Both the position numbers and the translations under genes were made by a program. From the NCBI GenBank assembly GCA_963726745.1, contig CAVSDR010000006.1, forward strand, positions 480,001 through 544,000: DNA of 64,000 nucleotides. Direction: 5' to 3'. The DNA is from an uncultured Verrucomicrobiae bacterium (GTDB lineage: Bacteria; Verrucomicrobiota; Verrucomicrobiia; Chthoniobacterales; UBA10450). Below, piece by piece: positions 1 through 60,939 of this stretch. Each line of letters begins with the position of its first letter. Position 1 is the first letter of the stretch. A model generated the notes under the pieces. The model did no database searches. It saw only the letters and a program-made list of their open reading frames with translations, and was not told the origin of the DNA.

Positions 1-1685
1 ATCTCGTCGTGCCGCACCGCGCCCACGTCGTTTAGGCCGGGCACGTCCTCTGCGAGCAACACCGCGTGCACACCAGGAAAGGCCCGCGCCGCGCTCGCGT
101 CGCGCCGGAGAATTTTCGCGTGCGCGTGTGGCGAGCAGACCGGCCAGACTTCGAGCATCGCCTCGGATTGCGCGCAGTCGTCCACGTAGATCGCCTCGCC
201 GGTGACATGTTTATGCGCGCTCTCGTGCGGCAGCGATGCCGGACGCTCCGCGAGCGCGCGCGCGATCTTCCCCGGAGACGGAACCGGCGCTTCCTCTTCG
301 AGGAATCGAGCCAGCAAACTGGTGATCAATTCCCGCCGGTAAAGCTCGCTCCCGCGCACGTCCGAGATCGGCGAAAACTCCGCCGCCAGCACCGGCGCGA
401 CCTCTGCGAAAATCTCCGGCCGCCAGTGCTTGCCCAAGAGCGCTTGCTCAGTCGCATGCGCCCGCACCGGCATCGCGGCCACGCCGCCGAAAGCGACGCG
501 CGCTTTTGTGATCGTGCCGCCCTCCGTGCGCTCGACCGCGAACGCGCCGGCCACGGTGCTGATGTCCATTTCGCGGCGCTTGGAGACTTTGAACCAGCGG
601 CGATGCGACCCGGCCGGAGGAACAGGCAGCAAGATGGCCCGAAGGATTTCGCCCGGCTCCAGCGCGGTCTGGCGGTAACTCACGAAAAATTTCTCCAGCG
701 GCAACACGCGTTCGCCTTTCGCGGAAGCGAGCACGACCTGCGCATCGAGCGCGAGCAGGACCGGCGCGGAATCGCCGATGGGCGACGCGGTCACAAGATT
801 TCCGCCCATGGTCGCGCGGTTCCGAATCTGCCGCGAGCCGAAGACGAGGAGCATCTCGCGCAACTCCGGGAAGTCGCTCCCTAACGAGTCATCGATCTTC
901 GTGAGCGTGGCCGCGGCGCCGATCCGCCAGCCCTCGCCGGTGCGCTCGACCGCATTCAGCTCCGCGATCGCTTCCAGCGAGATCAGCACCGGGAAGCGGC
1001 GATATTTTTTCGTGATCTCGAGCCCGAGCTCGGTCGCGCCGGCGATCAGCCGTGCCTCCGGATTGGCGGCCATCATTTCGAAAAGGCGCGGGAGCGAAGT
1101 CGGCCGGAGAAACTTCTCCTCGCCATAGGTGTAGCGGACCGCGCCCGGCTTCGCTTTGGCTGTGCGCAGCTGTTCGTCGAACGAGTCCGCGCCGTGGCGC
1201 TGCGCGAAGGCGTCGGCCGCGGCGTCGCGGATCGGCCGGTAGCCGGTGCAACGGCAGAGGTTGCCGGCTAGTTGCTCATCGAGTTGCGCCGCGGTCTTCA
1301 GGTCCTTGCGGTAGTAGCCTTCGAACATCGACATGATGAAGCCGGGCGTGCAGTAACCGCATTGCGACCCGAAGTTTTCCACCATCGCCTGCTGCACCGG
1401 GTGCAGCTTTTTCGCACAGCCGACCCCTTCCACCGTGAGGAGTTCGCGCCCGGCCATGAGCGGCAGCGGGACAAGGCAGCTGTTGATCGCGCGGAAGCAG
1501 CGCTTTCCTTTCGCATCGCGATCGACCAGCGCGACCGAGCAGGCGCCGCAATCGCCTTCGGCGCAGCCTTCCTTCGAACCGGTCAGGCCATTGACCCGCA
1601 GCCATTCGAGCAGCGTGGTATTCGGTGAGACCGAGTCGACGCGGACCGCTTTCCCGTTCAGCCGAAACTCGAAGGCGTTGCTCAT
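1..1685 (-). CDS. xdhAB: Xanthine dehydrogenase, fused 2Fe-2S + FAD + molybdopterin-binding polypeptide; runs off the left edge
   Basis: Hand translation from ATG 1685 gives MSNAFEFRLNG..GSKEGCAEGDCGACSV..SQCGYCTPGF..GNLCRCTGYRPI (2Fe-2S) and FGSRQIRNRATMGGNL (FAD). It continues in the same frame with no stop into LPHESAHKHVTGEAIYVDD (XdhB N-terminus). Absent from the ORF track because no stop lies in the window. Confidence 0.9.
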   Translation of the reverse strand, partial: MSNAFEFRLNGKAVRVDSVSPNTTLLEWLRVNGLTGSKEGCAEGDCGACSVALVDRDAKGKRCFRAINSCLVPLPLMAGRELLTVEGVGCAKKLHPVQQAMVENFGSQCGYCTPGFIMSMFEGYYRKDLKTAAQLDEQLAGNLCRCTGYRPIRDAAADAFAQRHGADSFDEQLRTAKAKPGAVRYTYGEEKFLRPTSLPRLFEMMAANPEARLIAGATELGLEITKKYRRFPVLISLEAIAELNAVERTGEGWRIGAAATLTKIDDSLGSDFPELREMLLVFGSRQIRNRATMGGNLVTASPIGDSAPVLLALDAQVVLASAKGERVLPLEKFFVSYRQTALEPGEILRAILLPVPPAGSHRRWFKVSKRREMDISTVAGAFAVERTEGGTITKARVAFGGVAAMPVRAHATEQALLGKHWRPEIFAEVAPVLAAEFSPISDVRGSELYRRELITSLLARFLEEEAPVPSPGKIARALAERPASLPHESAHKHVTGEAIYVDDCAQSEAMLEVWPVCSPHAHAKILRRDASAARAFPGVHAVLLAEDVPGLNDVGAVRHDE

Positions 1686-3035
1686 GCGCCGCGCCGCCCT
1701 TGCAAAATCTTCAGGAACGAGCGCGAGCGAATTTCCTCGAGCGTGAGCCCGGTCTCGAGCGCTTCGCTCTCGGTGATCGCGCCGCAGGCAATTCCGCGGA
1801 GGAAGAAATTGAGCAAGCCCTGGCCGGTGGCGGCATCGTCGAAGACATCGCCGTGGAGCGAGGCGAGCGCGGCTTTTTCCACGAAGGCTTTCAGGCGATT
1901 CGAAGCGCTCGCAAGGCCGCCGAGGAAGAAATGGTAAACCGCGGCGTAGCGGGTCACGAGCTGCGCCGGGTGGAGATCCCAGCCTTGGTAAAAGCCATTG
2001 CGAAGCGAGTGCAGGTTGTCGTCAAACCCAAGACGCCAGGCCTTGTGCACCGACTCGCGGTTTTCGCGTTCCTGCTCCGGCGTGAGCGTTTGACCTTCGG
2101 CGGCGCGATGCGGCGCGGCCGGCAAGATATTGGTCGCGCCATCGGAAAGATGCACGCCGGTGCCGGCAGTGGAGACGAGCATCACCTGGCGCGCGAAGTC
2201 GCAGGTCGGATGGCCCATCGCCTGGTAGGCCGCGGTGATCCCGCAGGAGGCGGTGTAATCGTAAACGCCGAAATGGATGCTGCGGCAGCGCCCTTCCGCA
2301 GCCTCGATCAACGCGCCGATGCCCATCCGTCCCTGCTGGCTGATGATCGCCTGTGGCGTCTCGATCATCGGCTCGAGCTGGAGCGCACCGTTCGTTAGGC
2401 CGAGGCGTTCCTCGAGCAATTTGCAGTAGGCCACGGCGGCGTGCATTTGCTCGGGGAGCTGCACCTTCGGCACGGTGATGACGAAATTAGCCGGCAACTT
2501 CCCGCCGCTCTCGCGCAGGAGCGCGGAGAGGAAAAGATCGAGCGTGCGCACGCTCCGGGCGCGCAAGTCTTCATTGAGCGGCTTCAGGCGGATGCCGATG
2601 AAAGGCGGGAGCGTGCCCTGCGCCAGGCCACGTGCGACCTCGGCGGCGCTGGAGGCGGCGTGGCCATCTTCCTCCTCGTCGGCGCGATTGCCGTAGCCAT
2701 CCTCGAAGTCGAGCCGGAAATCTTCCACCGGTTCGCGCTCCAGTTTCTCCTGCACGCGCGCGATAGACTTTCTCCGCATGTTCGCCTTCGAGCCCGAGAA
2801 TCTTCCCAAGCGTCGCCGCGTCGGGCGCGTATTCCTCGAGCGAGCGCCGCGCGACCACGCCGAGGCGCTGCGCGGAATCGGCCCGGAAGAGGTGCGCGCC
2901 GCCGTAGACCACGTGGACCGCCTGGCGGCGATCGGATTCCCCGGGGTAATGGCGCAGGAAGCCGAGATTGGCCTCGCGCAAAGCGCTGTCTATTTTCTTC
3001 GTGTCGTCGGGCTGGAGAGTGGTTTTCGCGTTCAA
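1682..3035 (-). CDS. HpcH/HpaI aldolase-citrate lyase fold protein (DUF6986-like); one apparent frameshift near 2762
   Basis: ORF 2571..3035 N-terminus (HVVYGGAHLF) joins ORF 1682..2809 (DFRLDFEDGYG, PKV, MIETP, HFGVYDYTA, LSDGATN, QGWDLHPAQL). The TTG start overlaps the allantoinase TGA, and the stop overlaps the xdh ATG. Confidence 0.75.
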
Positions 3036-4307
3036 AATGGTTCCGGCCTAACGAATTGGGCGTTGGGGCGGCGGGGGAAATTACCATCCTCGAAGACGGT
3101 TTGTCCGCGCAAAAATGTGCGGCGCACGCGCGCTGGCGGCGTTCGGCCGATGTAAGGCGACTGCCGGTGCCGGTAATGGAGCGACTCCGCGGTGATGGTT
3201 TCGCCCGCGCCAAACTCGAGCAGGGAGAAGTCGGCATCCTTTCCCACTTCGAGCCCGCCCTTGTCCGCGAGGCGGAAACGCCGGGCGACGTTGGCGCTCG
3301 TGAGTTGACTCGATCCCCGGCAGGTCGGCCAGGAGCGGCAGAAGATGCTGGCAACCGGAGATGCCGCCCCAGACTTCCGCGAAATTCTCCCGCTGCTTCA
3401 TCTCCGGCGGCGAGGGCGAATGATCCGAGCCGATGGTCTCGACGTCCCCGAGGTGCGCCTGCAGGTCGCGCTGCTCTGCGGCCGAGCGCAGCGGCGGGGC
3501 GCACTTCGCCACCGCGCCTAACGAGACCATATCCTCGTCGGTCAGGAGCAGGTAATGCGGACAGGTTTCGCAGGAAACGTCGAGCCCGGCCGCGCGCGCT
3601 TGCGCCACCAGTGCCACGCCGCGTCCGCTGCTCACGTGCACCAGGTGCAGCCGGCATTTTGTTTCCTCCGCCAGCTCGAGCGCCTGCCGGATGGCTTCCA
3701 GCTCCGCTTCCACGGGGCGCGAATCGAGGAAGTCGCGCACCGTCCCGCCGCCTGCCGGACGCAAGGCCGCGGGCGCCTCCGCATGCAAGCCGACGAGCAG
3801 CCCGAGCTCCGCGGCGCGTGCCATCCCCGCGCGCAGCGTGGCCCAATCGGCGAACGGAAAATCGTCGATCCCGCTCGGGCACATGAAGGCCTTTAACCCC
3901 ACAACCCCGCGGTCGCGCAGCGTTTCCAAGTGCTCGAGGTTGCCCGGGACCAGGCCGCCCCAAAGCCCGAAGTCGGCTAACGAGTGCTCCTCCGCGGCCG
4001 CGCGCTTCGCGTCGAAGCTCGGGCCGTCGAGCGTCGGCGGGTGCGCGTTCAGCGGCATGTCGAAGAAGGTGGTGGTGCCGCCGGCGAGGGCCGCGCGCGA
4101 GCCGCTGGCAAAACCTTCCCAGTCCGTCCGGCCGGGCTCGTTGAAATGCACGTGCGCGTCGATCACCCCGGGGAAAATCGCCAGCGCGGTGGCATCAATC
4201 TCTGCCCGCGCCGCGCCCGGGAGGTTCGGTCCGATGGCGGTGAACTTGCCGTCTAAAATCCCGAGGTCGCGCTCGCGCCCGCGCACCAGGAGGTCGAACT
4301 CGCTCAT
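3032..4307 (-). CDS. allB: Allantoinase; apparent frameshift near 3305
   Basis: PGVIDAHVHFNEPGRTDWEGF, DMPLN, SCETCPHYL, KCAPPLR, SDHSP and WGGISG motifs. The C-terminus (GKDADF..HYRHRQSPYIG) is in ORF 3032..3247. Purine-catabolism context. Confidence 0.9.
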
Positions 4308-5305
4308 TCGTTAGGCAGCCGCGGCACGCCCCAGAGCCGCAGCCGGCTGACGCCGCCGTCCGGGAAAATATTCAGCCGCACATGGGTGCAGTTCTCCAGC
4401 GGAGCGAGTTCCTGCTCGAAGAAGTGGCGCGTGTGCGCCTCGAGCTTGGTCTGCGGGAGGATCGGCTGCCACGCGGCGCTGGCTAATTCCTCCGCGGTGG
4501 CGCCAGGCGCTTGCACGCCCTCGAGCGAGCAGGTGTCGGGGTAGTTGCCCTTGAAGTGATTCGTGTCGACCTCGATTTTCCGGATCGCGCCGGGACGGCC
4601 GAGCTGCAGGATCAGCCAATCGTGCCCGGGACCGCGGCGGCGTTTGGTCTCCCAGCCGTCGCCCATATTTTCGGAACGGCCGGGCATGATCAGGTTGTTC
4701 ATCGAGGAGAAAAACATGTCGCTGCAGGCGAGCGGCACGCCGCCATTCTCCACCGCCGCGAGGTCGACCGTTTCGCCGGGTCGCACCTTGCTCCAATCGG
4801 GCACGACCACGCCATAGACCCGCAGGCGGGCAACGCCGCCGTCCGGGAAAATGTTCAGTCGGAGATGCGTCCAGGCTTCTTCGTTCGCGATCGCGAAGAG
4901 ATTTTGCGAGCCGGGATCGAGCGGTGACTTCTCCAGGATCGTCGTCCAGCGAAGCTGCTCGAGGTCGCTGATCTCGCCGTCGGCGCGCGCGGCGTCGAGC
5001 GAAGCGAACGGCGGGTGGTTCCCGAGGAAGTGATTGGTGTCGATGTCCACCTGCCTAACGACTCCACGCAGGCCAAGCCGGAGGATGCACCAGTCGTGGC
5101 CCGGCGTGCGGCGCCGGCGGCTTTCCCAGCCATCCATCCACTTGCCGCGCTCGGTGTATTTATCGGGAATGAAGACGCCGCGCCCAGGCTTGAGGAGGTT
5201 TTCTTTCTCGGCAAAGAATTCGTCGTTCGCCTGGAGCGCAACGCCACCGACGCGCGCCGCCGCGAGGTCAACCAGGCCAGGAGGAGTGGAATCTTTTTCG
5301 CTCAT
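4304..5305 (-). CDS. alc: Allantoicase (two allantoicase repeats)
   Basis: Duplicated motifs DGWESRRRR/DGWETKRRR, DTNHFxGN and RLNIFPDGGVxRLR. Confidence 0.95.
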   Translation of the reverse strand: MSEKDSTPPGLVDLAAARVGGVALQANDEFFAEKENLLKPGRGVFIPDKYTERGKWMDGWESRRRRTPGHDWCILRLGLRGVVRQVDIDTNHFLGNHPPFASLDAARADGEISDLEQLRWTTILEKSPLDPGSQNLFAIANEEAWTHLRLNIFPDGGVARLRVYGVVVPDWSKVRPGETVDLAAVENGGVPLACSDMFFSSMNNLIMPGRSENMGDGWETKRRRGPGHDWLILQLGRPGAIRKIEVDTNHFKGNYPDTCSLEGVQAPGATAEELASAAWQPILPQTKLEAHTRHFFEQELAPLENCTHVRLNIFPDGGVSRLRLWGVPRLPNE

Positions 5306-5313
5306 GTGTGATT

Positions 5314-5634
5314 TCAGCTTCCGCGATAGGTGCTGTAGCTCCAGGGCGAGACCAGCAGCGGGACGTGATACTTCGCCATCTTGTCGGCTATTTTGAAACG
5401 GACGGGCACGCGATCGAGAAAAGCGTTCTCACCGAAGTAATCGCCGACGTGGAAAATGAGTTCGTAGTCGCCCGCGCGCATTTCGTCGCCGCTGAGCAGC
5501 GGGCCATCGGTGCGGCCGTCGGCGTTGGTAATCGCGGTCTTGAGGAGCTGGCCGGCAGCCCAGAGTTCAATCTTTAAGCCGGCGGCGGGACGGCCGCGGG
5601 CGGTATCGAGGACATGGGTGGAAAGCGTGCTCAT
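5314..5634 (-). CDS. uraH: 5-hydroxyisourate hydrolase (transthyretin-like)
   Basis: [15 protein letters not shown]-terminus and [19 protein letters not shown]-terminal signature. Confidence 0.97.
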
Positions 5635-6128
5635 GGGGCCACGAGGTCGCGCAGCCGCAGCTCCGCAATTTGGTAGATCTCGCCGAGTGCGGTTTGGATT
5701 TCCTGCTCCCGGGAATTTTCCAGGCGCCGGGGGAAGGCGCGCAGGATGGCTTCCTTCTTGTTCAGGCGCGCGCAGATGACGAACGGAAAGCCGAAGCGCT
5801 CCGCATAAGCGCGATTGGAGCGGTCGAAAAACGCGACCTCCTCCGCGGAGAGTTCGCCCAGGCCGGCGCTCTGTTGCTCGCTTTGCGACTCGCTCGTGAG
5901 CACGGCGCGGCCGACAAGATCAGGATGCGCGCGGATCAAGGAAAGCTGTTCGTCCGCGGTGGCGGCCTCCACGGTTGCGCGGAGCGCGGCGAGCAGAGCC
6001 TCCAGGCTCACGAAGGGCCGCCGGGCGGCGGTGCGTTCCGCGATCCAGGGCGAATGCTCGAAGACCGGCCCGACGATGCGCGTGAACTCCGCGGGCGGGA
6101 GCGCATTCAACTCCTCCAGCTTTACCAT
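5631..6128 (-). CDS. uraD: OHCU decarboxylase
   Basis: [46 protein letters not shown]. Confidence 0.95.
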
Positions 6129-6173
6129 CGCGCTCCGGCCTGCCTTGAATTATGAATGGTGCGCAAGCTGCCC

Positions 6174-7016
6174 ATGAAACTCCTGAGCAATCGATACGGC
6201 AAGGCGCGAGTGCGCGTCCTGAAAATTTTACGCGCCGGGGCGCGGCACACGGTGCAGGAAATCGAGGTCACGGCCCTGCTCCAGGGCGACTTTGGCGAAA
6301 GCTACACCGCGGGCGACAACACCGGCGTGGTCCCGACGGACACGATCAAGAACACGATCAACGTGCTCGCGAAGGATCACCTGGGCGAGGAGATCGAGCG
6401 CTTCGCCCTCTCGTTAGGCAATCACTTCCTCGAGCGCTACAAGCAGGTCGCGAGCGCCAACATCGAGATCAGCGCCAAGCGCTGGGAGCGGATGGAGATA
6501 GAGGGCGAGCCGCACCCGCACGCCTTCGCAGCCGGGAGCGAGGCCCGGGGCTGGACCCGCGCGGTAAGCACGCGCGAGTCGCAGTTGGTCGAGTCCGGCG
6601 TGCGCGACCTGGTGATCATGAAATCGACCGGCTCCGGCTGGGCGGGTTTTCCGCGCTGCGAATACACCACCCTCCCGGAGACGACGGATCGCATCCTCGC
6701 GACCTCCTTTGACGCCACCTGGACCTGGTCCAACCTGCCGGCTGATTTTCGCCGGGCGAACGACGCGATCCTGGCCGCGATGTTGAAAGCTTTTGCGAAC
6801 AACTACAGCCCCTCGGCGCAGGCGAGCGTCTACCAGATGGGCGAGGCCGCGCTCAGTGTCTGCCCGGAGATCGCGCGCGTGGCCATGAAGATGCCGAACA
6901 AGCATTACCTCCTGGTGAACCTGAAGCCGTTCGGAATGGAAAATCAGAACGAGATCTTCGTCCCGACGGACGATCCGTTTGGCTTGATCGAAGGCACCGT
7001 CGTCCGCGATGCCTGA
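6174..7016 (+). CDS. pucL: Factor-independent urate oxidase (uricase); alternative start 6156
   Basis: YGKARVRV, VVPTDTIKNT, KSTGSGW, YTTLPETTDRILAT, SPSAQAS, MPNKHY, PFGLIEGTV. Confidence 0.95.
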   Translation: MKLLSNRYGKARVRVLKILRAGARHTVQEIEVTALLQGDFGESYTAGDNTGVVPTDTIKNTINVLAKDHLGEEIERFALSLGNHFLERYKQVASANIEISAKRWERMEIEGEPHPHAFAAGSEARGWTRAVSTRESQLVESGVRDLVIMKSTGSGWAGFPRCEYTTLPETTDRILATSFDATWTWSNLPADFRRANDAILAAMLKAFANNYSPSAQASVYQMGEAALSVCPEIARVAMKMPNKHYLLVNLKPFGMENQNEIFVPTDDPFGLIEGTVVRDA

Positions 7017-7803
7017 GGATTTGCTGGAGGAACTGCTCCGCGCGCGGCAGGCGCGCACCGCCTGTGTGCTCGCGACCGTCGCGGCCACCACCGGCTCCGT
7101 GCCGCGCGCCGCCGGCTCGAAGATGCTGGTCTACGCCGACGGCAAAACCAGCGGGACGATCGGCGGCGGAAAGTTCGAGGCGCTCGTGGTGGAGGAAGCA
7201 CGCGCCGCTTTGCGCGCAAAGGCTCCGATCTTGAAACGCTACCCGCTGCACGAGGAGGACGCGGCGTCGTTTGGCGCCATCTGCGGAGGCGAAGCGACGG
7301 TCTTGCTCGAGCCGCAGGCGCTGGCGGAAGCGATCTACCTCGTCGGCGGCGGGCATTGCGCGCGCGCCATCGCGCACCTCGCCAGCACGGCGGGTTTCGT
7401 GACTGGCGTGCTCGAGGATCGTGCGGAATTGCTGGAGGATTTTCCCGCGGCAACCGCGCGCCTGGCGGCGGACTTTATCGCCACCCATCCCTGGAGCCGC
7501 GATGAGGCGCTCGTGCTCGTAAGCCGGAATCACGAGGTCGACCGCGAGGCGCTGGCCGCGGCGATGGCGCACGCGGAGAATGCCGGCTATCTCGGGATGA
7601 TCGGTAGCCGGCGAAAGGTGCGGATGGTTTTCGAGCACTTGCGCGCTCGCGGCGTGACCGACGAGCAACTGGCGCGGGTGCACGCGCCCCTCGGCCTCGA
7701 CATCGGCGCGGATTCGCCGGCAGAAATCGCGATCAGCGCGCTCGCAGAAATCATCGCCGTGCTCCGCGGCCGCGACGCCACCTCGCTGCGCGCGGGAGTT
7801 TGA
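7009..7803 (+). CDS. xdhC: XdhC/CoxI family Moco-insertion accessory protein
   Basis: GSVPRAAGSKM, GTIGGG, CGG, GGGHCARA, YLGMIGSRRK, HAPLGLDIGADSPAEIAIS. Confidence 0.92.
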   Translation: MPEDLLEELLRARQARTACVLATVAATTGSVPRAAGSKMLVYADGKTSGTIGGGKFEALVVEEARAALRAKAPILKRYPLHEEDAASFGAICGGEATVLLEPQALAEAIYLVGGGHCARAIAHLASTAGFVTGVLEDRAELLEDFPAATARLAADFIATHPWSRDEALVLVSRNHEVDREALAAAMAHAENAGYLGMIGSRRKVRMVFEHLRARGVTDEQLARVHAPLGLDIGADSPAEIAISALAEIIAVLRGRDATSLRAGV

Positions 7804-7834
7804 CGCTTCGCGCGCCGGTCCCTACGCTGGGCGC

Positions 7835-8398
7835 ATGAGCAAGCTCGCTGAAGCCCTCGCCTCGGGCACCGAAGTGCAGGCGCCGATCGATCTGATGGGC
7901 TGGATCGAAGCGAACCGCGAGAAATTCAAGCCGCCGGTGAGCAATCGCTACCTCTACGATGGGCGCGACTTCTTTGTCATGATCATCAAGGGGCCGAATG
8001 CGCGGAACGATTTCCACCAGGTCGACAGCGAGGAGTTTTTCCTGCAACTCAAAGGCGACATCAAGGTGCGCATCCGCGAGGGCGACCGAATCGTCGATCA
8101 CCTGGTGAAAGAAGGAGAGACGTTCTTCATTCCGCCGAATGTCCCGCACGCACCGGTGCGTCCACCGGACACGCTCGGCCTGGTGGTTGAACGCCGCCGT
8201 CCGCCGGGCGAGCGCGAGCACGTGATCTTCTATTGCCCGAATTGCGAGGCGCTGGTGGAAGACATCGACTTCGATTGCGCCGATATCGTGCAGGCTTTCA
8301 GCAAAGCGATGACCGACTTCTGGGCGGACGACGCGCGCCGCACCTGCCCGGAGTGCGGCACCAAGGTCCCGCAGCCGGAGCCGGTGAAGCCGTTCTAA
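7835..8398 (+). CDS. nbaC: 3-hydroxyanthranilate 3,4-dioxygenase
   Basis: KPPVSN, GPNARNDFH, EEFFLQLKGD, PPNVPHAPVR, ERRR; rubredoxin-like CPNC..CPECG. Confidence 0.93.
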   Translation: MSKLAEALASGTEVQAPIDLMGWIEANREKFKPPVSNRYLYDGRDFFVMIIKGPNARNDFHQVDSEEFFLQLKGDIKVRIREGDRIVDHLVKEGETFFIPPNVPHAPVRPPDTLGLVVERRRPPGEREHVIFYCPNCEALVEDIDFDCADIVQAFSKAMTDFWADDARRTCPECGTKVPQPEPVKPF

Positions 8399-8415
8399 GC
8401 GCGGGCGAAATTTTA

Positions 8416-8433
8416 GGCAACTAATTGGTTGCC
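8416..8433. promoter_or_regulatory. Near-palindromic operator 1, likely bound by the adjacent ArsR regulator
   Basis: GGCAAC-TAATTG-GTTGCC inverted repeat upstream of the SRPBCC-ArsR pair. Confidence 0.6.
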
Positions 8434-8456
8434 AGTCCGGCCAGGCAGCTGCAATA

Positions 8457-8474
8457 TGCAACCATGAAGTTGCA
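8457..8474. promoter_or_regulatory. Near-palindromic operator 2 with the same GCAAC-N6-GTTGC geometry
   Basis: TGCAAC-CATGAA-GTTGCA, ending just before ATG 8476. Confidence 0.6.
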
Positions 8475-8475
8475 A

Positions 8476-8934
8476 ATGCAGGAAGACCAAATCCAGAAGC
8501 AAATCGAGATCGACGCCCCGGTCGCACGCGTTTGGCGCGCGCTGACCGATCACACGGAGTTCGGCCAATGGTTCGGCGTCGCGATCGACGGGCCATTTGT
8601 CGCCGGGGAAAAATCGCGCGGGCGGATGACCATCCCCGGTCATGAACAGGTGAAGTGGGACGTGGACGTGCAAGAGCTCGATCCGCAGCGCCATCTCTTT
8701 GCCTACACCTGGCATCCCTACGCGATCGATCCGGATCACGATTACTCGCAGGAACCGACGACACGAGTGGAGTTCCAACTGGAGGCGAAAGGCGACGGCA
8801 CGTTGTTGACCGTGACCGAGACCGGCTTCAGCAAGTTGCCGGCTAACCGGATGCCCGAGGCCTTGCGGATGAACACGCGCGGCTGGGAGATCCAGGCGCA
8901 GGACATCAAGGAGCATGTCGAGCAGAACGCCTAA
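8476..8934 (+). CDS. SRPBCC/AHSA1-like ligand-binding protein
   Basis: IEIDAPVARVWRALTD..FGQWFG, FAYTWHPYA, TRVEFQLE..GTLLTVTETGF, GW. Start chosen downstream of the operators; 8464 is possible. Confidence 0.88.
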   Translation: MQEDQIQKQIEIDAPVARVWRALTDHTEFGQWFGVAIDGPFVAGEKSRGRMTIPGHEQVKWDVDVQELDPQRHLFAYTWHPYAIDPDHDYSQEPTTRVEFQLEAKGDGTLLTVTETGFSKLPANRMPEALRMNTRGWEIQAQDIKEHVEQNA

Positions 8935-51433: not shown

Positions 51434-51487
51434 GCCGTCCGAGGGCACGCTTCCCAAGCGCCCGGCTTTAGCCTACAACCTCAAGAC

Positions 51488-51889: not shown

Positions 51890-51943
51890 GCTGCGGCCGG
51901 TTAAAAGCCTTGCATCTTGCCCTCGCAGCCTGACTCTTGACCC

Positions 51944-52261: not shown

Positions 52262-52334
52262 CAGCCCGCGCCGCCGGTTGACGCACGCCGCCGCTTACGA
52301 CACCTTGCGCGCTTCCGCGCCCGCTATTCCCATC

Positions 52335-52610
52335 ATGCCTGAGCCCGATCTCCGCCGCCAAATCAAGGACATGCTTGTGAAGAATCTCATGCTCCAGGTG
52401 ACCGCGGAGGAAATAACCGACGAGATGCCGCTCTTCGGCCCCGGCGGCCTCGGGCTGGATTCGATCGACGCCCTCGAGCTCGTCGTGAGCATGGAGAAAA
52501 CTTTCGGCGTCGGCGTGCCCAATTCCGAAGTCGCCGGCAAAGCGCTCCAGAATGTGAACACGATCCACGATTACATCGTGGAGAAACAGCAGACGCCGGC
52601 GCAGGCCTGA
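52335..52610 (+). CDS. Acyl carrier protein-like
   Basis: PLFGPGGLGLDSIDALEL (phosphopantetheine Ser); acidic, about 91 aa. Confidence 0.88.
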   Translation: MPEPDLRRQIKDMLVKNLMLQVTAEEITDEMPLFGPGGLGLDSIDALELVVSMEKTFGVGVPNSEVAGKALQNVNTIHDYIVEKQQTPAQA

Positions 52611-52623
52611 GCGTTTCCGCTCG

Positions 52624-53700
52624 TTAGTCCGCGCGCTCCGCGAGGTTGATCGCATCGATCAACTGCCGGAAACGCGCGAAGCTCCGCCGGTGTGGGGCCA
52701 CGATCAGGCGCGGCAAATCCCAGATCGCCGGCTCATTTTTCTCCTGCCGCAACGCCGTGCCCTGGGCGATCTCGCCCGTGCGGATGATGTCGGCAAAATC
52801 GCGATTTAACTGCGCCACCGCCGCCGGTGTGAGCTGGTGCAACATCCGCAAAACCATCTGGTCGCCCACCCAGCGGGCCGATTGATAGTTGGTGTAGAAT
52901 TCCACGATCTCCGCGACCGCTTCCTCCGCGCTGTGCACGATCTTGAAGAAGTGGAAATCCTCCTCGCTGATCAGTCCCAGCTTCAACAAGTGGTCGGTTA
53001 AAAATTTCATCCACGTTTCCCAGTAGTGGCCGTTCGGCTCGTCGATCATGACCACGGGGATGATCCGCGCCTTGCCCGTCTGCATGAGCGTGAGCACCTC
53101 GAAGCCCTCGTCCATCGTCCCGAAGCCGCCGGGGAAAAGCGCGAGCGCGTGCGTTTCCTTCACGAAGTTGAGCTTGCGGGTGAAGAAGTAATTGAAGTTC
53201 ACCAGCTTCGAGTCGCCGTGAATGGTCTCGTTCGCGCGCTGCTCGAAGGGCAGGCGGATGTTCAACCCGAAGCTGTGCTCGCGCCCCGCGCCGCGCTGCG
53301 CCGCGCCCATGATTCCGTCGCCCCCGCCGGTGATGACCATGTAATTCTGCGCCACAATCTGTCGGGCGAATTCCTCCGCCACCTGGTAGTCCGGCGCCGA
53401 GGGGAGCGTGCGCGCGGAACCGAAGACGCAGACCTTCCGGAACTCGCGATAGCCCGCAAACATCTTCGCCGCGTAGCGCATTTCCTTGAGCGAGCGGTTC
53501 ATCAATTTCAGGTCCGCCGTGCCCATCTTGTCGCGCGCCATCTTCAGTGCGGTGATGATCATTTCCTCGACCAGCTCCGGGGATTTTGGCGCCCCCCAGT
53601 CGGCCACCAGTTGATGAATGCGTTCGTCCCATTCCGCGCCTAACGAGGACTGCCGGCGGGTGGGTTGGTCGTGCGTGATGCCTGTAGCGAAGTCGTCCAC
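52624..53700 (-). CDS. LOG family (TIGR00730-like) nucleotide monophosphate nucleosidase
   Basis: VCVFGSART, TGGGDGIMGA, LPFEQ, YFFTRK, PGGFGTMDE. Confidence 0.88.
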   Translation of the reverse strand: MDDFATGITHDQPTRRQSSLGAEWDERIHQLVADWGAPKSPELVEEMIITALKMARDKMGTADLKLMNRSLKEMRYAAKMFAGYREFRKVCVFGSARTLPSAPDYQVAEEFARQIVAQNYMVITGGGDGIMGAAQRGAGREHSFGLNIRLPFEQRANETIHGDSKLVNFNYFFTRKLNFVKETHALALFPGGFGTMDEGFEVLTLMQTGKARIIPVVMIDEPNGHYWETWMKFLTDHLLKLGLISEEDFHFFKIVHSAEEAVAEIVEFYTNYQSARWVGDQMVLRMLHQLTPAAVAQLNRDFADIIRTGEIAQGTALRQEKNEPAIWDLPRLIVAPHRRSFARFRQLIDAINLAERAD

Positions 53701-53743
53701 GGCGCGGATTTTCCGTGAGAAGCGCGTCCGCGCACAGCAAAAT

Positions 53744-54607
53744 CTAGCGGGCGGCGTCGAGCAGATCGCTCAGGATTTCGCTCATGTGTCGGATCGGGAG
53801 CGAATAATGCCCCGCTTCCGGCACGATCCGCAGCCGGCACTTTGGGAAGCGCGCGGCCACTTCCTCCGCGAGGCGAAAGGAGAACGCGCGATCGTGCGTC
53901 CCGTGCCACAGGCGCACCGGCACGCGGATTTCCTCCAGCGGGAAACCCCACGGCTGCGCGTAGATTTCCGCATCCGCGAGCACGCCCGCGACCGAGGCGC
54001 GCCAGGCGCGGCGCGAACTCTCGAAGCAGGCATTGAAGGCCTCGCGATCGCGCAGGACTTCCGCCTCCAGCGGTTGCAGCGTTCGCAGCATCATCGGCTG
54101 CGGCCAGCGAATCGCCGCCAACGGCCCGGCAACGTGAAAAAAGGCGCGCAGCAAACGTGGCGAACGCGCCTGCAGCGCGAGCAACCAGCGATACAAGCGC
54201 AAGAGGCCGGCGCGATCCTTCAACTCCGCGATCGGCGGCGCGCCGCTCACCAGTGCGATCGCCTCGACCGCCTCCGGCATCGCCCAGGCGGTCGCGCAGG
54301 CGTAGGGCGCCCCGCCGGAAATAGCCAGCACGCTCAGCCGTTCAATCCCGAGATGATCCATCAGCGCGCGCACCAGCGGCGGCCAGCCGAGGAGCGTGCG
54401 CCCCGGCTCGAAAGACGACTCGCTGATCCCCGGCCGGTCCGGCGAGAGGATGCGCACTCCGAGCGCCTCGGCCGCTGCACTCGTTAGGCGGGCCATCCCC
54501 CGCGAGCTCGGCCAGCCGTGGCAAAAGAGCACCGGCCGTCCCGCGGGATCGCCAAACTCCTCCCACGCGAGCTCTCGGCCGTGCGCGAGTTGCAGCTTCA
54601 CCGGCAC
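53744..54607 (-). CDS. Alpha/beta hydrolase
   Basis: FCHGWPSSR, PDRPGISES, AISGGAPYA nucleophile elbow, WHGTHD, GH. Confidence 0.88.
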   Translation of the reverse strand: MPVKLQLAHGRELAWEEFGDPAGRPVLFCHGWPSSRGMARLTSAAAEALGVRILSPDRPGISESSFEPGRTLLGWPPLVRALMDHLGIERLSVLAISGGAPYACATAWAMPEAVEAIALVSGAPPIAELKDRAGLLRLYRWLLALQARSPRLLRAFFHVAGPLAAIRWPQPMMLRTLQPLEAEVLRDREAFNACFESSRRAWRASVAGVLADAEIYAQPWGFPLEEIRVPVRLWHGTHDRAFSFRLAEEVAARFPKCRLRIVPEAGHYSLPIRHMSEILSDLLDAAR

Positions 54608-54708
54608 AGACTAAGGCCGCGTCAGAAAAGTTGCGCCCGCCGAATGCGGGTCGAAGTTTTCCGGACAAGGAGGCGAACAGGCTGCATCCCTGTTTCGTAA
54701 TAGTTGAT

Positions 54709-55095
54709 ATGAACGAGCAATCGCATTCGGATCTCGGGAGAATTTCGGTCCACGGCAATGGCATGGGCGCACCCACGCCGGAGATGGTCGAAAAGCGCGC
54801 GCGTGAGATCGCTTTGATCAACGAGCGCAAACCCGACGAATACACCGACGGCGATTGGGACCAGGCCCGCCTCGAGCTTCTCGGGCGCGCGCCCGCGGAG
54901 GACGCCGACGAATTAGCCGACCACTTGAGCGAGCGCGACGAGCAGCTCGGCGAGCACGGCCATCGCGCTCCGCGCAACGGCGGTTACGAGGACGAGGAAT
55001 CCATCGGCGAACAGCTCGTGAGCGATGGCGTCGAAGAAGCCGAGCACGACCAGATGGTCGAAGCCGCGCGCGAAGACCAGGAACAGGAAGGCTGA
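54709..55095 (+). CDS. Acidic hypothetical protein with DUF2934-like motif
   Basis: VEKRAREIA..DWDQARLEL followed by a D/E-rich tail. Confidence 0.65.
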   Translation: MNEQSHSDLGRISVHGNGMGAPTPEMVEKRAREIALINERKPDEYTDGDWDQARLELLGRAPAEDADELADHLSERDEQLGEHGHRAPRNGGYEDEESIGEQLVSDGVEEAEHDQMVEAAREDQEQEG

Positions 55096-55116
55096 TTCCG
55101 CTTGAGTGTTTCCCCC

Positions 55117-56421
55117 ATGGCGATGGCGCCCGCATCGGGCAAAAGCGAGCGCACGCTTGCTGCTCGCCGTGGAGACTTGATCGCGCGCTTCCGCGGCGTT
55201 CGCGATTTTTCCACGCGGCTCACACGCGGGCTGCAGCCGGAGGATTGCGTGGTGCAATCGATGCCCGACGCCAGCCCCACGAAGTGGCACCTGGCGCACA
55301 CCAGCTGGTTCTTCGAGACCTTCGTTCTCAAGACTTGGGCGCCCGACTACCGCTCGCTCGTCCCGGAGTATGCCTTCCTTTTTAATTCCTACTACAATGC
55401 CGCCGGCTCGATGCATCGGCGCGATCTGCGCGGGTTGATCTCGCGCCCGACCCTCGGCGAAACGCGCGAGTTTCGCGCCTCGATCGACGCCGCGGTAGTG
55501 CAGCTCTTGGAACAGGCGGACGAGGCTTTGCTCGCGGAAATCGAGCCCGTGCTTGTGCTGGGCTTTCACCACGAGCAGCAGCACCAGGAACTTCTCCTGA
55601 CCGACATCAAGCACGCCTTCGCGCAAAATCCGCTGCATCCGGTCTTCGAGGAAAGTGCGCAGGGACCGAAAGCGACGCCGGTGCCGCCGCTCCAGTTCGT
55701 CACCTTCGAGGAAGCGACCGTGCTCATCGGCCATCACGGCTCAGACTTTTCCTACGATAACGAAGGCCCGCGGCATCGTGCTTTAGTCGGCGCCTTCTCG
55801 CTCGCGACCCGCCCGATCACGAATGGCGAATGGATCGAATTCATCGAGGCGGGCGGCTACGAACGGCCGGAACTTTGGCTCTCGTTAGGCTGGACCACCG
55901 TGGGCGAGCAGCGCTGGGAGGCGCCGCTCTATTGGGAAAAACGCGACGGCGCGTGGTGGAATTTCACCCTCTCCGGCTTCCGCCCGGTCGCGCCGAACGA
56001 ACCCGTGACCCACATCAGTTATTTCGAAGCGGACGCCTTTGCGAACTGGCAAGGCGCGCGGCTCCCGACCGAATTTGAATGGGAACGCGCCGCGGCTGAG
56101 TTGGAAATAGCCGGCAACTTCGTCAACGGGCATCGCTTCCACCCCGCCCCGGTTTCGCCGGACGAAAACGGGGAGTTGCGGCAGATGTTTGGCGACGTTT
56201 GGGAGTGGACGCGCAGCGCCTACCTCCCCTACCCCGGCTACCGCGCCGCGCCCGGCGCGCTCGGCGAATACAACGGCAAATTCATGATGAACCAGATGGT
56301 CTTGCGCGGCGGTTCCTGCGCCACCTCGCGGGATCACCTCCGCGCGACCTATCGCAATTTCTTCCAACCGGAAAAACGCTGGCAATTCACCGGCCTGCGC
56401 CTCGCGCGCGACTTGCAATGA
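55117..56421 (+). CDS. egtB: Ergothioneine biosynthesis sulfoxide synthase
   Basis: QSMPDASPTKWHLAHTSWFFETF, FNSYY, RGLISRP, HHEQQHQELL; C-terminal FGE-sulfatase domain (RLPTEFEWE, GDVWEWT, LRGGS). Confidence 0.93.
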   Translation: MAMAPASGKSERTLAARRGDLIARFRGVRDFSTRLTRGLQPEDCVVQSMPDASPTKWHLAHTSWFFETFVLKTWAPDYRSLVPEYAFLFNSYYNAAGSMHRRDLRGLISRPTLGETREFRASIDAAVVQLLEQADEALLAEIEPVLVLGFHHEQQHQELLLTDIKHAFAQNPLHPVFEESAQGPKATPVPPLQFVTFEEATVLIGHHGSDFSYDNEGPRHRALVGAFSLATRPITNGEWIEFIEAGGYERPELWLSLGWTTVGEQRWEAPLYWEKRDGAWWNFTLSGFRPVAPNEPVTHISYFEADAFANWQGARLPTEFEWERAAAELEIAGNFVNGHRFHPAPVSPDENGELRQMFGDVWEWTRSAYLPYPGYRAAPGALGEYNGKFMMNQMVLRGGSCATSRDHLRATYRNFFQPEKRWQFTGLRLARDLQ

Positions 56422-57392
56422 AGGCCGCCCATGGCCCCGCCGTGCTCGATCTGGAGCCGGCTTCCTCGGACTTTCTCGCCCAGGCGTTGGCTGGCCTTTC
56501 GGCCTCGCCGCGCACCCTGCCCTCGAAATTTTTCTACGATGAGCGCGGCTCGGATCTCTTCCTGGAAATTTGCGAACTGCCTGAGTATTACGTCACCCGC
56601 ACGGAGTTCGAAATCTTGCGCGCGCATGGCGCCGAGATGGCCGCATCCATCGGTGCAAATGCGGAGCTCGTCGGCTTCGGCACTGGCGCGGGCGCGAAGA
56701 CCCGGCTGCTGCTCGACTACCTGGAAAACCCGATCGCCTACCTGCCGGTCGATATCTCCAAGCAGCGCCTGACCGATTCTGCCGAGGAACTCAGCCGGGC
56801 GATGCCCGAGCTGGAGATTTTGCCCGTCTGCGCAGATTACCTGCAGCCGATTCAATTGCCGACGCCTTCGCGCGAGCCGGAGCATATCGCCGTCTATTTT
56901 CCCGGCTCGACCATTGGCAACCTCGAGCCGGAAGTCGCACGGGATTTTCTGCGGCGCGTTTGCCGGCTTTGCGGCCACAGCGGCGGCTTGATCATCGGGG
57001 TGGACTTGCAGAAGCCGCTCGAGATTCTCCTGCCGGCCTACAACGATGCCGCGGGCGTGACTGCGGCCTTCAATCTCAATCTGCTCGTTAGGGCAAATCG
57101 CGAACTCGGAGCCGATTTCGAGTTATCGCAATGGGAACATCGCGCGGTCTATCAGGCCGAGCTGGGCCGCATCGAAATGCATCTGGTCAGCCGTGTTGCG
57201 CAGTCGGTTCACCTCGGCGGACGCAGCTTCGAATTTCGCTGCAGGGCGAATTCATCATCACCGAGTATTCGCACAAATACACCGTCGAAGGCTTTGCAGC
57301 CGCTCGCTGCCACCGCCGGCTTCCGCCTCTCGCGCACCTGGACCGATCCGCAGAAGCTCTTCGCGGTTTTCCACTTTGTGACTTGCGATTGA
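56418..57392 (+). CDS. egtD: Histidine N-alpha-trimethyltransferase; two compensating frameshifts at about 57240 and 57300
   Basis: [50 protein letters not shown]; the conserved TEYSHKY segment lies in another frame. Confidence 0.92.
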
Positions 57393-58118
57393 GCGCGCTG
57401 GTTCAGCTCCGCGGCGTCAGCAAAACTTACGGCCCGCACACCGCGCTGCACCCCACCGACCTCAGCTTCGAGCGCGGCCTCACGACCGTGCTCCTCGGGC
57501 CAAGCGGCTGTGGCAAGTCGACCCTCCTGCGCCTGGTCATTCGTCTGCTCGTGCCGGACGGCGGCACCATACAATTTGACGGCGAAACAGTCACCGCCGA
57601 GAGCGTGCGCGCGTTCCGCCATCGCACCGGCTACGTCATCCAGGATGGCGGGCTTTTCCCGCACCTGACCGCGCGCGATAATATTCTCCTGCTCGCGCGC
57701 CACTTGAAAAAATCGCCGGCGCTCGAAGAACTCTGCGCGCTTACGCGCTTCCCGGCAGACGCCCTCGGGCGCTACCCCGCGGAGCTCTCCGGTGGCCAAC
57801 GGCAGCGCGTGGGCCTGATGCGAGCGCTCGTGCTCTCGCCCGAATTGCTCCTGCTCGACGAGCCGCTGGGCGCGCTCGATCCACTCGTTAGGGCGTCGCT
57901 CCAAGCAGGACCTGCGGGAGATTTTCCAGCGGCTCCGGCAGACCACCATCTTGGTCACGCACGATCTCGCCGAGGCCGCTTATCTGGGCGACCAGATTGT
58001 GCTGATGAATGAAGGCCGCGTGGTCCAGCAAGGCACCTTCGCTGAACTGCGGGACCAGCCGGCGAGTTCCTTTGTGACCGACTTCATCAACGCACAGCGC
58101 CGCGTGTTGCTCGCATGA
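57389..58118 (+). CDS. ABC transporter ATPase, osmoprotectant (OpuA/ProV-like) type; frameshift near 57905
   Basis: [42 protein letters not shown]; after the shift [11 protein letters not shown] start overlaps the egtD stop. Confidence 0.88.
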
Positions 58119-59561
58119 AGGCGCTGCTTGTTTTCCTCCTCGCGGCCACGCCATCGGCGCAAACCATCACCGTTGGTTCGAAAAAATTTACCGAGTCCTA
58201 TGTGCTGGCCGAGATCGCGCAGCGCTCGTTAGGCGATGCGGGACTGGCCACGGAACACCGGCAAGGAATGGGCGGAACAATCATCCTCTGGCAGGCGCTG
58301 CGCAGTGGGCAAATCGATGTCTATCCGGAATACACCGGGACGATTGCGGAGGAAATTCTCCGGCGCGGCGGGCCGGTTTCGACGGAGGACCTGCGTGCCG
58401 CCCTGGCGCCGGAAGGCGTGGCGATGTCGCCCGAGCTCGGTTTCAACAACACCTATGCGCTGGTCATGCGCCGGGAAACCGCGGCCGCCAAAGGCATCCA
58501 CACCCTCAGCGACCTGCGCGCCCATCCGGAACTGGTCTTCGGTCTCACGCATGAATTCATCGAGCGCCGCGACGGCTGGCGGCCCCTGGCGGAGCGTTAC
58601 GGTTTCGCCGCGCGCGAGCTGCGCGGGATCGACCATGGGCTCGGCTACGCTGCGCTGCGGAACGGCTCGATTGACGTGAAGGACGCCTATTCCACGGATG
58701 CGAAAATTGCCGAAAACGATCTCGTGGCACTGGAGGACGACCTCCACTTTTTTCCGCAATACCAGGCGGTGTTCCTTTATCGGGCTGCGCTGCCGGCTGC
58801 GGCGCGCGCAGCCCTGGAAAAATTAGCCGGCACTTTGGACGAGCCGCGCATGATCCGGCTGAACGCCGAGGCCGAGCGCACGAAAAATTACGCGCGCGCC
58901 GCCGCGCTTTACTTTGGCAGCAACGACAAATTCGTTGCCGCCGGGCTCGCGGCCCAAGATCGCCCGCTGGACCGTGCGTCATCTCGAGCTGGCTGGCACG
59001 GCGCTGCTGCTCTCCATCGCCCTCGGCTTGCCGCTGGGCATCTGGGCCAGCCGCGGCGGTGCGGCCGGGCACGTGATTCTGTCCGTGACCAGCGCGGTGC
59101 AAACCATCCCGTCGCTCGCGCTCCTGGCGCTCCTCGTGCCGGTGCCGTTCTTCGGGATCAGCGCGCGCACCGCGATCGCCGCGCTCTTCCTTTACGGGCT
59201 GCTCCCGATCGTGCGCAACACCGCCAGCGGGCTGCAGGACATCGCGCCCGGCCTCCGCGAATCCGCCCGCGCCCTTGGCCTAACGAGCGGCGCGCGCCTC
59301 CGGCAAGTCTACCTGCCGCTGGCTTCGCGGACGATTTTAGCCGGCATCAAGACCAGTGCCGTGATCAACATCGGCACGGCCACACTCGCGGCCCTGATCG
59401 GCGCCGGCGGCCTGGGCGAGCCGATCATCAGCGGGCTGAACTTGAACGATCACGCCACCATCCTGCAGGGTGCGATCCCGGCTGCGGTGCTCGCGCTTCT
59501 GGTGCAGTGGTCGTTCGACTTGCTCGACCGCTTTTTGATTCCGCGGGGCCTGCGCTTATAG
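58115..59561 (+). CDS. Fused betaine-type substrate-binding protein + ABC permease; frameshift near 58940
   Basis: VGSKKFTESYVLAEI, DVYPEYTGT, GFNNTYAL (OpuAC/OsmF-like); then QTIPSLALL, LPIVRNT, ESARALG, LIGAGGLGEPI (permease). Confidence 0.85.
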
Positions 59562-59567
59562 GAAATC

Positions 59568-60932
59568 ATGGCAATCGCCTCGATCAACCCGGCGACCGGG
59601 GAAACGCTGCGCAAGTTTGACTCGTTAGACGAGGACGCGATCGAGGAAAAGTTGGCCCGGGCAGCGGCCGCGTTTGCGGAACATCGACGGACCACCTTTG
59701 CCGCGCGCACCAAGGCAATGCACGCGGCTGCGGAGCTGATGGAAACGGAAAGCGATTCCTACGCGCGCACGATCACGCTCGAAATGGGCAAGCCGATCGC
59801 GGCCGCGCGCGCCGAGGTCGAGAAATGCGCCAGCGCCTGCCGCTACTACGCGACTCACGCGGAGGACTTCCTGCGGCCGAAAGAGCAGCTCGCGGTCACC
59901 GGCCGGAATTACGTGCGCTGCGATCCACTCGGCCCGGTGCTCGCGATCATGCCGTGGAATTTTCCCTTCTGGCAGGTGGTGCGATTTGCCGCGCCGGCGC
60001 TCATGGCCGGCAACGTCGGCCTCTTGAAACACGCCGCGAATGTTCCGCAATGCGCGCTCGCCCTGGAGGAGATCTTCCGGCGCGCCGGCTTCCACCGGGA
60101 CGCTTTCCAAGCGCTCCTGATCGAGTCCGACCAGACGGCCGCGGTGATCGACGATCCGCGGGTCAAGGCGGTCACGCTCACCGGCAGCGAGCGCGCCGGC
60201 GCGGCGGTGGCGAGTCGCGCGGCGCGCCAGCTCAAGAAGAGCGTGCTCGAGCTCGGCGGGAGCGATCCCTTCGTGGTTATGCCGAGCGCCGACCTGGAAA
60301 AGGCCGCCGCGATCGGGGTGAAATCGCGCACGGTCAACAGCGGGCAATCGTGCATCGCGGCCAAGCGTTTCATCGTCGCGGAAGCAATCTACGGGCGCTA
60401 CGTCGAGCAGTTCGTGGCGCAAATGCGGGCGCTAAAAACCGGCGACCCGATGGAGGAAACGACCGAGCTCGGGCCGCTGGCCACGGAGGAAATCCGCGAG
60501 GGCGTGCACGAGCAGGTGCAAAAAACGATCGAGGCCGGGGCGAAGCTCTTGTTAGGCGGCCGGAAGCTGGAAGGTGCTGGCTATTTTTATGCGCCCACCG
60601 TCCTGGTCGATGTGCCGCCCGATTCGCCCGCGGCGCGCGATGAAATCTTCGGCCCGGTGGCGGCTTTCTTTCGCGTGGCGAACCTGGAGGAAGCGATCGC
60701 GCGCGCGAACGACACGCCCTTCGGGCTCGGGGCGAACGCCTGGACAAATGACCCCGCGGAGCAGGAGCGTTTCGCGGTCGAACTGGAGGCCGGCCTGGTT
60801 TTCATCAATGGGATGGTCGCATCGCAACCGCACCTGCCGTTTGGCGGGGTGAAGCGTTCCGGCTTTGGGCGGGAGCTCGGGAGCGAAGGGATTCGCGAGT
60901 TTGTGAATGTGAAGACGGTCGTCGTAGCCTAA
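59568..60932 (+). CDS. NAD(P)-dependent succinate-semialdehyde dehydrogenase-like aldehyde dehydrogenase
   Basis: [57 protein letters not shown]. Confidence 0.9.
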   Translation: MAIASINPATGETLRKFDSLDEDAIEEKLARAAAAFAEHRRTTFAARTKAMHAAAELMETESDSYARTITLEMGKPIAAARAEVEKCASACRYYATHAEDFLRPKEQLAVTGRNYVRCDPLGPVLAIMPWNFPFWQVVRFAAPALMAGNVGLLKHAANVPQCALALEEIFRRAGFHRDAFQALLIESDQTAAVIDDPRVKAVTLTGSERAGAAVASRAARQLKKSVLELGGSDPFVVMPSADLEKAAAIGVKSRTVNSGQSCIAAKRFIVAEAIYGRYVEQFVAQMRALKTGDPMEETTELGPLATEEIREGVHEQVQKTIEAGAKLLLGGRKLEGAGYFYAPTVLVDVPPDSPAARDEIFGPVAAFFRVANLEEAIARANDTPFGLGANAWTNDPAEQERFAVELEAGLVFINGMVASQPHLPFGGVKRSGFGRELGSEGIREFVNVKTVVVA

Positions 60933-60939
60933 CGACCTC

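Follow-up and report, generated by a model that had tools for sequence, protein, structure and literature searches.

What is the function of a non-palindromic octamer, CCTAACGA, that recurs throughout the genes of an uncultured Verrucomicrobiae bacterium? The question was raised by a sequence-only reading of a 64,000-nucleotide stretch of DNA (the window; C6:480001-544000), which is part of a 3.41-Mb genome comprising 7 contigs with a completeness of 94.7% (G000). All 44 exact copies placed by that reading between positions 880 and 60935 of the window, 24 on the plus and 20 on the minus strand, were recovered at their coordinates, and its eight near-copies (3976, 10167, 11832, 31188, 42294, 52621, 59622, and 60549; span 3976..60556) each differ from the octamer by one mismatch. 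The reported excess was also reproduced, with 100 dinucleotide shuffles of the window yielding only 0.63 ± 0.77 copies (maximum of 3). Genome-wide, 1,514 copies were counted (790 plus, 724 minus), covering all 7 contigs evenly and occurring in the rRNA operon as well. Our results indicated that the octamer is the core of a longer word (word 1), which is characteristic of a family of soil bacteria in the Chthoniobacterales, coincides in sequence with the crossover site of this family's integrons, and behaves like the uptake signal sequences (USS) of the Pasteurellaceae and the DNA uptake sequences (DUS) of the Neisseriaceae, making it a putative member of this class.

The octamer itself was found to be real as a core, although the word extends past eight bases. 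Its fuller form is GCCTAACGAG(T/A), and a matrix fit with the consensus G-C-CTAACGA-G-(T/A)-n-n-(T/A), i.e., GCCTAACGAG[T/A]nn[T/A], assigned approximately 2,160 sites to the genome and 51 to the window. Specificity is composed of a sharp core, CTAAC[G/A]A, and graded flanks that reach background beyond approximately 14 bases; the shared flanks of a dispersed repeat were not observed, and the 64-kb window contained no Rfam matches. Both the word and its matrix are asymmetric, in contrast to the palindromes of the highly iterated palindrome (HIP1) type. The proposal of a DNA-level signal without strand polarity was supported by the strand balance, which showed no relation to GC skew (31 bins of 100 kb, rho -0.06; a test limited in power by the 7 contigs and the weak skew). 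Replication-strand polarity of the kind known for Chi or KOPS was not detected (790 vs 724 copies), nor was polarity with respect to transcription (527 sense vs 584 antisense copies within genes). Uptake sequences likewise show no strand polarity (PMC1939737, accessible part). Word 1 was depleted in low-GC regions, the 11 bins with less than 60% GC containing 1.0 copies per 10 kb compared to a mean of 4.45 (22%).

To what extent can codon usage account for these numbers? Genes were called by means of a custom script (3,018 genes), and gene-level counts are thus approximate. Against 20 per-gene synonymous shuffles, the codon null for which the sequence-only reading had called, CCTAACGA occurred 528 times vs 32 and TCGTTAGG 584 times vs 13, corresponding to a 17- to 45-fold excess. 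The null is slightly lenient, because the reversed control word itself exceeded it by a factor of 2-3 (55 vs 29 and 62 vs 22). The claimed frame independence was confirmed, with word 1 using four of the six frames and the other two containing stops. It encodes 488 of the 762 Ser-Leu-Gly tripeptides (64%) and 244 of the 391 Pro-Asn-Asp/Glu tripeptides, together with 284 of 1,563 Leu-Thr and 96 of 1,392 Val-Arg opportunities. Furthermore, the proteome is shifted towards some of these peptides: Ser-Leu-Gly was found 762 times vs 417-578 times for five permutations, and Pro-Asn-Glu 253 times vs 64-180 times, whereas Pro-Asn-Asp and Leu-Thr-Arg showed no enrichment over their permutations. Enrichment of the encoded tripeptides has been described for uptake sequences in the available portion of PMC2817400.

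The host genes named previously, namely dnaE, recF, a gene with a glutamine synthetase domain, and a FabG-like short-chain dehydrogenase gene, were upheld and illustrate the use of the word. In dnaE (46078-49437, minus strand), the plus-strand copies at 47375..47382 (TCG TTA GG) and 46523..46530 are read in frame as Ser-Leu-Gly, as deduced from the coordinates, and a further plus-strand copy at 46077..46084 gives the gene its TAG stop. recF (44042-45091, minus strand) includes a minus-strand copy at 44518..44525, which is read as Leu-Thr (CTA ACG, frame again taken from the coordinates). Ser-Leu-Gly is also encoded in frame within the glutamine synthetase gene (50756-51433, plus strand; copy at 51263..51270, minus strand) and the short-chain dehydrogenase gene (14162-14905, minus strand; copy at 14265..14272, plus strand). 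Conservation at silent sites, which had been suggested as a check, was evident in orthologues with four-fold sites near saturation and an identity of approximately 0.5-0.6. High-copy relatives retained a rare Leu codon within word 1 in 34 of 60 cases (a sample in which two genomes contribute the dnaE locus only, one being the unpublished G001) and low-copy relatives in 35 of 136, compared to 6 of 99 and 13 of 206, respectively, outside the word. Copies arise via point substitution in essential genes and not by insertion. A codon, composition, or assembly artefact, to which the raised reversed control might point, is refuted by the size of the excess, the retention of rare codons, and the presence of the same word in many independent assemblies of relatives, fragmented and contiguous ones alike; its probability is practically nil.

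How far does word 1 extend beyond this genome? The names of homologues, and of genomes sharing its attC type, assign the organism to the Chthoniobacterales, an assignment with which its 16S gene is in accord. Among congeners, 24 out of 24 genomes drawn exceeded the reversed control, and all 16 genomes from 15 other families fell below it. In 151 genomes of the family, representing 34 genera and including 4 unpublished genomes, GCCTAACGA was present in 13 to 4,336 copies, an approximately 300-fold range, with 34 genomes exceeding 1,000 copies and 5 lying below the control. None of the 199 genomes drawn from other families of the phylum exceeded the control. A genome of Ca. Udaeobacter featured 163 copies vs 52, and no dialects of word 1 were observed in the enriched family samples examined. 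In G028, which belongs to another family, five copies were located within 3 kb at the end of contig C2 (L072:6583-9713), outside attC sites; these represent DNA acquired or mis-binned from the enriched family.

Copies of word 1 in G000 avoid each other. Pairs less than 250 bp apart reached only 0.3-0.7 of the expected density, which became normal at approximately 300 bp, for all three orientations; none of ten control words, whose counts are noisy and one of which is low at short range, showed the same steady rise. Correspondingly, Ser-Leu-Gly or Pro-Asn-Asp/Glu tripeptides used word 1 at a frequency of 0.38 (n = 60) when another copy was present within 100 bp, compared to 0.69-0.70 (n = 540) when the other copy was 300-1,000 bp away (0.70 at 500-1,000 bp). 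For USS, two copies within 100 bp provided no added uptake, as far as the accessible text of PMC7811141 goes. A site for a chromosome-organising protein, the footprint or loop of which makes neighbouring copies redundant, is consistent with this avoidance, with the even cover of 7 contigs on both strands including genes and the rRNA operon, and with graded specificity; a structural role has also been proposed for HIP1 (PMC5861425, in part). However, the approximately 300-fold copy range and the scattered occurrence of a second word (see below) would be surprising in an essential structure, no protein emerged as a candidate, and the match to integron sites described next is left unexplained. 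We therefore regard such a site as improbable.

The sequence-only reading did not recognise the word, and a literature search, with subscription papers and supplements outside its range, likewise returned no relevant paper naming CCTAACGA, TCGTTAGG, GCCTAACG, CGTTAGGC, GTTAGGC, or TCGTTAGGC, none on uptake sequences in Verrucomicrobia, and nothing relevant on competence in Udaeobacter. The word has a counterpart in the integrons of the family: CTAACGAG with A or T as the next base forms the crossover site of 14 attI sites and of 59 of 65 attC ends (GAGA). Directly upstream of the integrase gene in 13 family genomes, the sequence NNCTAACGAG(A/T) was found, with two differing, and the two sites detected in other families read GCCTAACAT. 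These attI sites were inferred from their position, and five more family genomes showed no site, at least three of them due to contig ends. Among attC ends of the family, 59 of 65 read CTAACGAGA; the search pattern fixed CTAAC and one A, and a looser pattern agreed. The attC end bearing word 1 is the crossover end, as deduced from the divergent layout of the arrays, and word 1 thus contains the core sequence of an att site at the crossover point, in the usual core nomenclature and with the usual cleavage position. The match is letter for letter and includes the weak downstream preferences, while the opposite attC end, CTAACCA, was not enriched in the genome (35 vs 66). A chance match of the seven-base degenerate core was estimated at approximately 1 in 100-200 per word, many such words having been logged; four further matching bases make chance less likely. 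The att sites may have been pulled towards the host word rather than the reverse.

Could the integron integrase itself have produced the genomic copies? Secondary attI-like sites made or kept by IntI are suggested by the exact attI/attC match and by the occurrence of IntI genes in 41 out of 60 genomes of the order. However, genomic copies are single, sit in core genes without a partner end, paired boxes, hairpin, cassette context, or cognate integrase, and persist in the absence of IntI. The integrase was not found in G000, G024, and G087, the latter being the densest genome, it is present without enrichment in G062 and in six of seven genomes of other families, and its presence consequently does not track word 1; a stand-alone integrase N-terminal domain was not found either. 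Since genomes without enrichment have the att word as well (G062, G028 of another family, and four genomes of other phyla), the integrase is an unlikely reader. Moreover, the copies originate from point substitution, and selection would be expected to remove active secondary sites from dnaE. Nor is the sequence match complete: att sites accept any purine-pyrimidine-C, the start triplets of the 65 attC ends being ATC (28), GCC (21), GTC (8), ACC (7), and AGC (1), whereas use of the word in genes is highest for GCC (0.73), followed by GGC (0.34), CCC (0.33), GAC (0.31), ACC (0.24), and GTC (0.22), with ATC being ignored (0/94). In summary of these points, an integrase footprint is very unlikely. 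G000 itself contains one array of 15 attC sites (C6:736,572-744,900) with an attI-like site approximately 500 bp beyond (whole locus L276, C6:736572-745330), and true attC sites otherwise occur only as solitary sites on C2 and C4. As no integrase for it was found in the G000 genome, the array belongs to the class of integrase-less cassette arrays termed CALIN, as described in the accessible part of PMC4889954. A dif-like origin of word 1 was rejected as well, since no convincing dif site was found (best, 16 of 28 matches).

Masking of word 1 exposed a second, more abundant word that the earlier inventory of the window had overlooked. This word 2, SAWNKYGYYGGCTAAWTY, is asymmetric and degenerate, with approximately 5,300-5,600 sites in the genome and 101 matrix hits on both strands of the window (617..63063), among them strong copies at 4240..4261 (plus, score 14.7) and 58818..58839 (minus, score 15.2) and the top-scoring copy at 41670..41691 (plus, score 15.4). 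Against the codon null, it was counted 643 times vs 49 and 832 times vs 54. Both words have G(C/G)CTAA in common. Close pairs of word 2 copies are under-represented (0.4-0.8 below 250 bp), whereas pairs of word 2 with word 1 are not (0.9-1.2), suggesting that each word is read independently of the other. A strict pattern was found 1,366 times vs 37 in G000 and 549 times vs 38 in G046, an unpublished genome of another genus, and weakly in G015 (115 vs 29) and G011 (95 vs 31), the remaining 297 of 301 family genomes being near control; the word is accordingly strong in two of 301 genomes only. G046 uses a dialect, GA(T/G)CGcGYYGgcTRW, at 1.7 per kb, with little short-range avoidance as judged from a loose pattern. 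Word 2 looks younger than word 1, because amino acid conservation at its sites is lower (0.61-0.71 vs 0.76) and its depletion in low-GC bins is less pronounced (54% of the mean vs 22% for word 1). None of the 329 genes matched between G000 and G046 (501 kb of 2.3 Mb) stood out as transferred, and when second words were sought de novo in seven further samples of the family, the search converged on codon periodicity or on repeats already known. Word 2 also forms overlapping opposite pairs, 103 of 125 being inside genes. A terminator role was rejected on this count and because word 1 inverted pairs are rare in G000. A C5 methyltransferase as reader of word 2 was dismissed too, being encoded in 9 of 36 genomes and absent from G046, G015, and G011.

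Phage contigs provided the evidence for a different reading. In two paired-word scans, (G)CCTAACG was found to saturate two of the 167 viral loci listed, L340 and L375, tailed-phage contigs with genes for a portal and a terminase in one case and for an endolysin and virion proteins in the other. Counts amounted to 38 vs 1.3 expected in the 15.9 kb of one contig and 26 vs 0.9 in the 7.8 kb of the other, and the spacing of CCTAACG was more even than random (L340, every 283 bp, coefficient of variation 0.57, p 0.002; L375, every 418 bp, coefficient of variation 0.70, p 0.015). This would suit an intracellular self-mark, by which a cytoplasmic nuclease, helicase-nuclease, or defence complex would spare or repair DNA within a few hundred bases of a copy, so that chromosomes, long-resident integrons, and phages would all be selected to carry the word, with an effect resembling that of Chi without its geometry. 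The even spacing of 283 and 418 bp matches the avoidance range of G000, low-GC islands are poor in word 1, and some phages over-represent the Chi of their host (PMC3784561, accessible part). Phages are better explained in this way than by an uptake tag. Chi is polar and orientation-dependent; word 1 resembles it as an over-represented non-palindromic octamer with a related word dense in some phages, but is unpolarised and orientation-independent, and its avoidance extends over hundreds and not thousands of bases. Furthermore, the phage word does not include the strict final A of word 1, the exact family dialect was not found at high density in any of the 184 viral loci listed (167 plus seventeen more), and no candidate enzyme is available. 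On balance, a self-mark is a serious explanation, albeit an unlikely one.

Is the word linked to methylation, as is HIP1? An orphan beta-class N4/N6 DNA methyltransferase featuring an SPPY motif is encoded in G000 at C3:981251-982042 (L281:16251-17042) and was detected in 53 of 54 other family genomes vs 1 of 11 genomes of other families (E ≤ 1e-40). It is often adjoined by an HD-domain gene, no restriction enzyme was recognised beside it, and its nearest solved structures matched with an E-value of 8e-20 only. Such an enzyme could mark the sharp core CTAAC[G/A]A, and methyl-directed repair or methyl-dependent transformation would then build or keep the word. HIP1 (GCGATCGC, cyanobacteria) is comparable as a hyper-abundant octamer kept beyond codon needs in lineages with an orphan methyltransferase, an association reported in the accessible portion of PMC4390886; word 1 differs in not being palindromic. 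The sequence-only reading had proposed that presence of a methyltransferase might track the motif; this was not the case, as the gene also occurs in G062, G077, and G072, three genomes whose word counts do not exceed the control. In addition, flanks that are graded across 14 bases do not resemble the site of a methyltransferase, and methylation cannot explain word 2, which C5 methyltransferases do not track. A methylation-linked word is thus rather unlikely. The tetramer GTAC is strongly depleted in G000 (0.16 of expectation), and four small samples of other families did not contain it at all. It was considered and rejected as target of the orphan enzyme, being depleted in most genomes sampled, including those outside the family.

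The explanation that we tentatively prefer, at somewhat less than even probability, is that word 1 is a DNA-uptake-type tag accumulated by biased transformation. According to this proposal, a sequence-preferring transformation step would favour DNA containing GCCTAACGAG(T/A), and point mutations towards the word would spread via homologous replacement up to the limits set by codon usage and protein function, a molecular drive of the kind put forward for USS and DUS. On a short fragment, a second copy would add nothing, and copies would thin out below approximately 300 bp. The reader may have arisen to favour cassette-bearing DNA, or the att sites may have been drawn towards the word by the drive; word 2 would be a younger tag of the same kind, separately read. 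We infer the uptake, its reader, the drive, and the order of events from these patterns. Biased uptake combined with drive would account for the codon override, the tripeptides, the lack of polarity, the redundancy of close copies, the poverty of islands, and the dialects of word 2. In Vibrio cholerae, transformation supplies cassettes to chromosomal integrons (PMC12614218, in the part accessible). Because transformation is a route of cassette capture, a reader tuned to att sites would have a reason to exist. One further study reportedly describes the same route.

Competence genes are present in G000, namely ComEC (847 aa), DprA, and 16 prepilin-type genes, but the expectation that such genes would track the word failed, with ComEC being found in 59 of the 60 genomes tested, irrespective of enrichment. 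Its near universality speaks against it as the reader, and it is one of several observations that weigh against the uptake reading. A search for a receptor pilin among 25 proteins yielded a best ComP_DUS score of 20.4 bits vs a cut-off of 27.3. A PilX-like DUF7305 pilin near dprA has an orthologue in the unenriched G062 and was not found in G013, G024, and G087. For USS, the receptor PpdA is itself a prediction, as stated in the accessible part of PMC12616744. A ComEA-type helix-hairpin-helix (HhH) domain was detected in 23 of the 26 family genomes with high copy numbers and in 15 of the 26 with lower ones, kin not being independent, and the nuclease-ComEA fusion of G000 (C4:17230-17874) is devoid of the HhH domain, half a domain lying elsewhere; these truncated genes were seen in a genome that is 94.7% complete. 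A nuclease-HhH fusion, presumably a secreted thermonuclease, or another HhH match was present in 38 of 52 family genomes (L504-L525). Short-range avoidance is also not general, being weak in G013 (15 vs 29 pairs below 300 bp), indistinct in G024 (21 vs 21), and absent from a 100-kb sample of G087 (79 vs 72). A word common to 34 genera makes a poor species tag. The commonest att variant, ATCTAACGA (ATC), shows no enrichment in genes, making it less likely that the word serves cassette capture. Finally, the density of the phage word (2.4-3.3 per kb) and its even spacing are at least as compatible with a benefit inside the cell.

Despite these points, the resemblance to USS and DUS is broad. Word 1 shares with both the form of a non-palindromic word of 9-11 bases, present on both strands beyond codon and composition nulls, mostly within genes, at 1,300-4,300 copies in high-copy genomes, with enriched tripeptides, graded flanks, scarcity in low-GC islands, and a family-wide range; word 2 adds a dialect and, as in USS, overlapping opposite pairs. 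It differs in sequence and phylum, in the lack of inverted-repeat terminators in G000 and of dialects in the genomes sampled, in its identity with an integron crossover site, and in the coexistence of two independent words in G000. What is new is the att match, the avoidance in G000, the second word, and the evenly spaced word in two phage contigs. A more far-reaching scenario, which we consider unlikely, is a DNA-reading step tuned to the integron crossover site, by which cassette-bearing DNA would be taken up or spared and a word-saturated chromosome would result as a by-product; the tuning would have arisen in, or spread to, another phylum and phages, and a second reader would have been added or be taking over in G000, one tag replacing another.

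Sequence-tagged uptake has been described, in the literature cited here, only for Pasteurellaceae and Neisseriaceae. If the uptake reading is true, common soil bacteria (Chthoniobacterales, including Ca. Udaeobacter) would be filtering the DNA that they exchange by its sequence, and the att match would tie this filter to gene-cassette traffic. Because word 1 varies 300-fold and word 2 is scattered (2 strong and 2 weak of 301 genomes), the reader genes should be findable by comparative genomics. Word 1 can also be used as a binning marker, and, if needed for entry or survival of DNA, it would provide a practical key to transforming these uncultured bacteria.

Several minor observations complete the analysis. 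The region 42306-49437 of the window comprises recF and dnaE, with yidC located at 39385-41133; dnaA and dnaN were not among the annotated genes. In G087 (L075-L079), 8 of 21 neighbouring pairs of word 1 copies less than 70 bp apart are separated by 18-19 bp, in all orientations. Stop codons in G000 comprise 900 TAA, 1,067 TAG, and 1,051 TGA, TAA and TAG being unusually common for a genome with 64% GC, and about a third of the TAA/TAG stops overlap word 1 or word 2.

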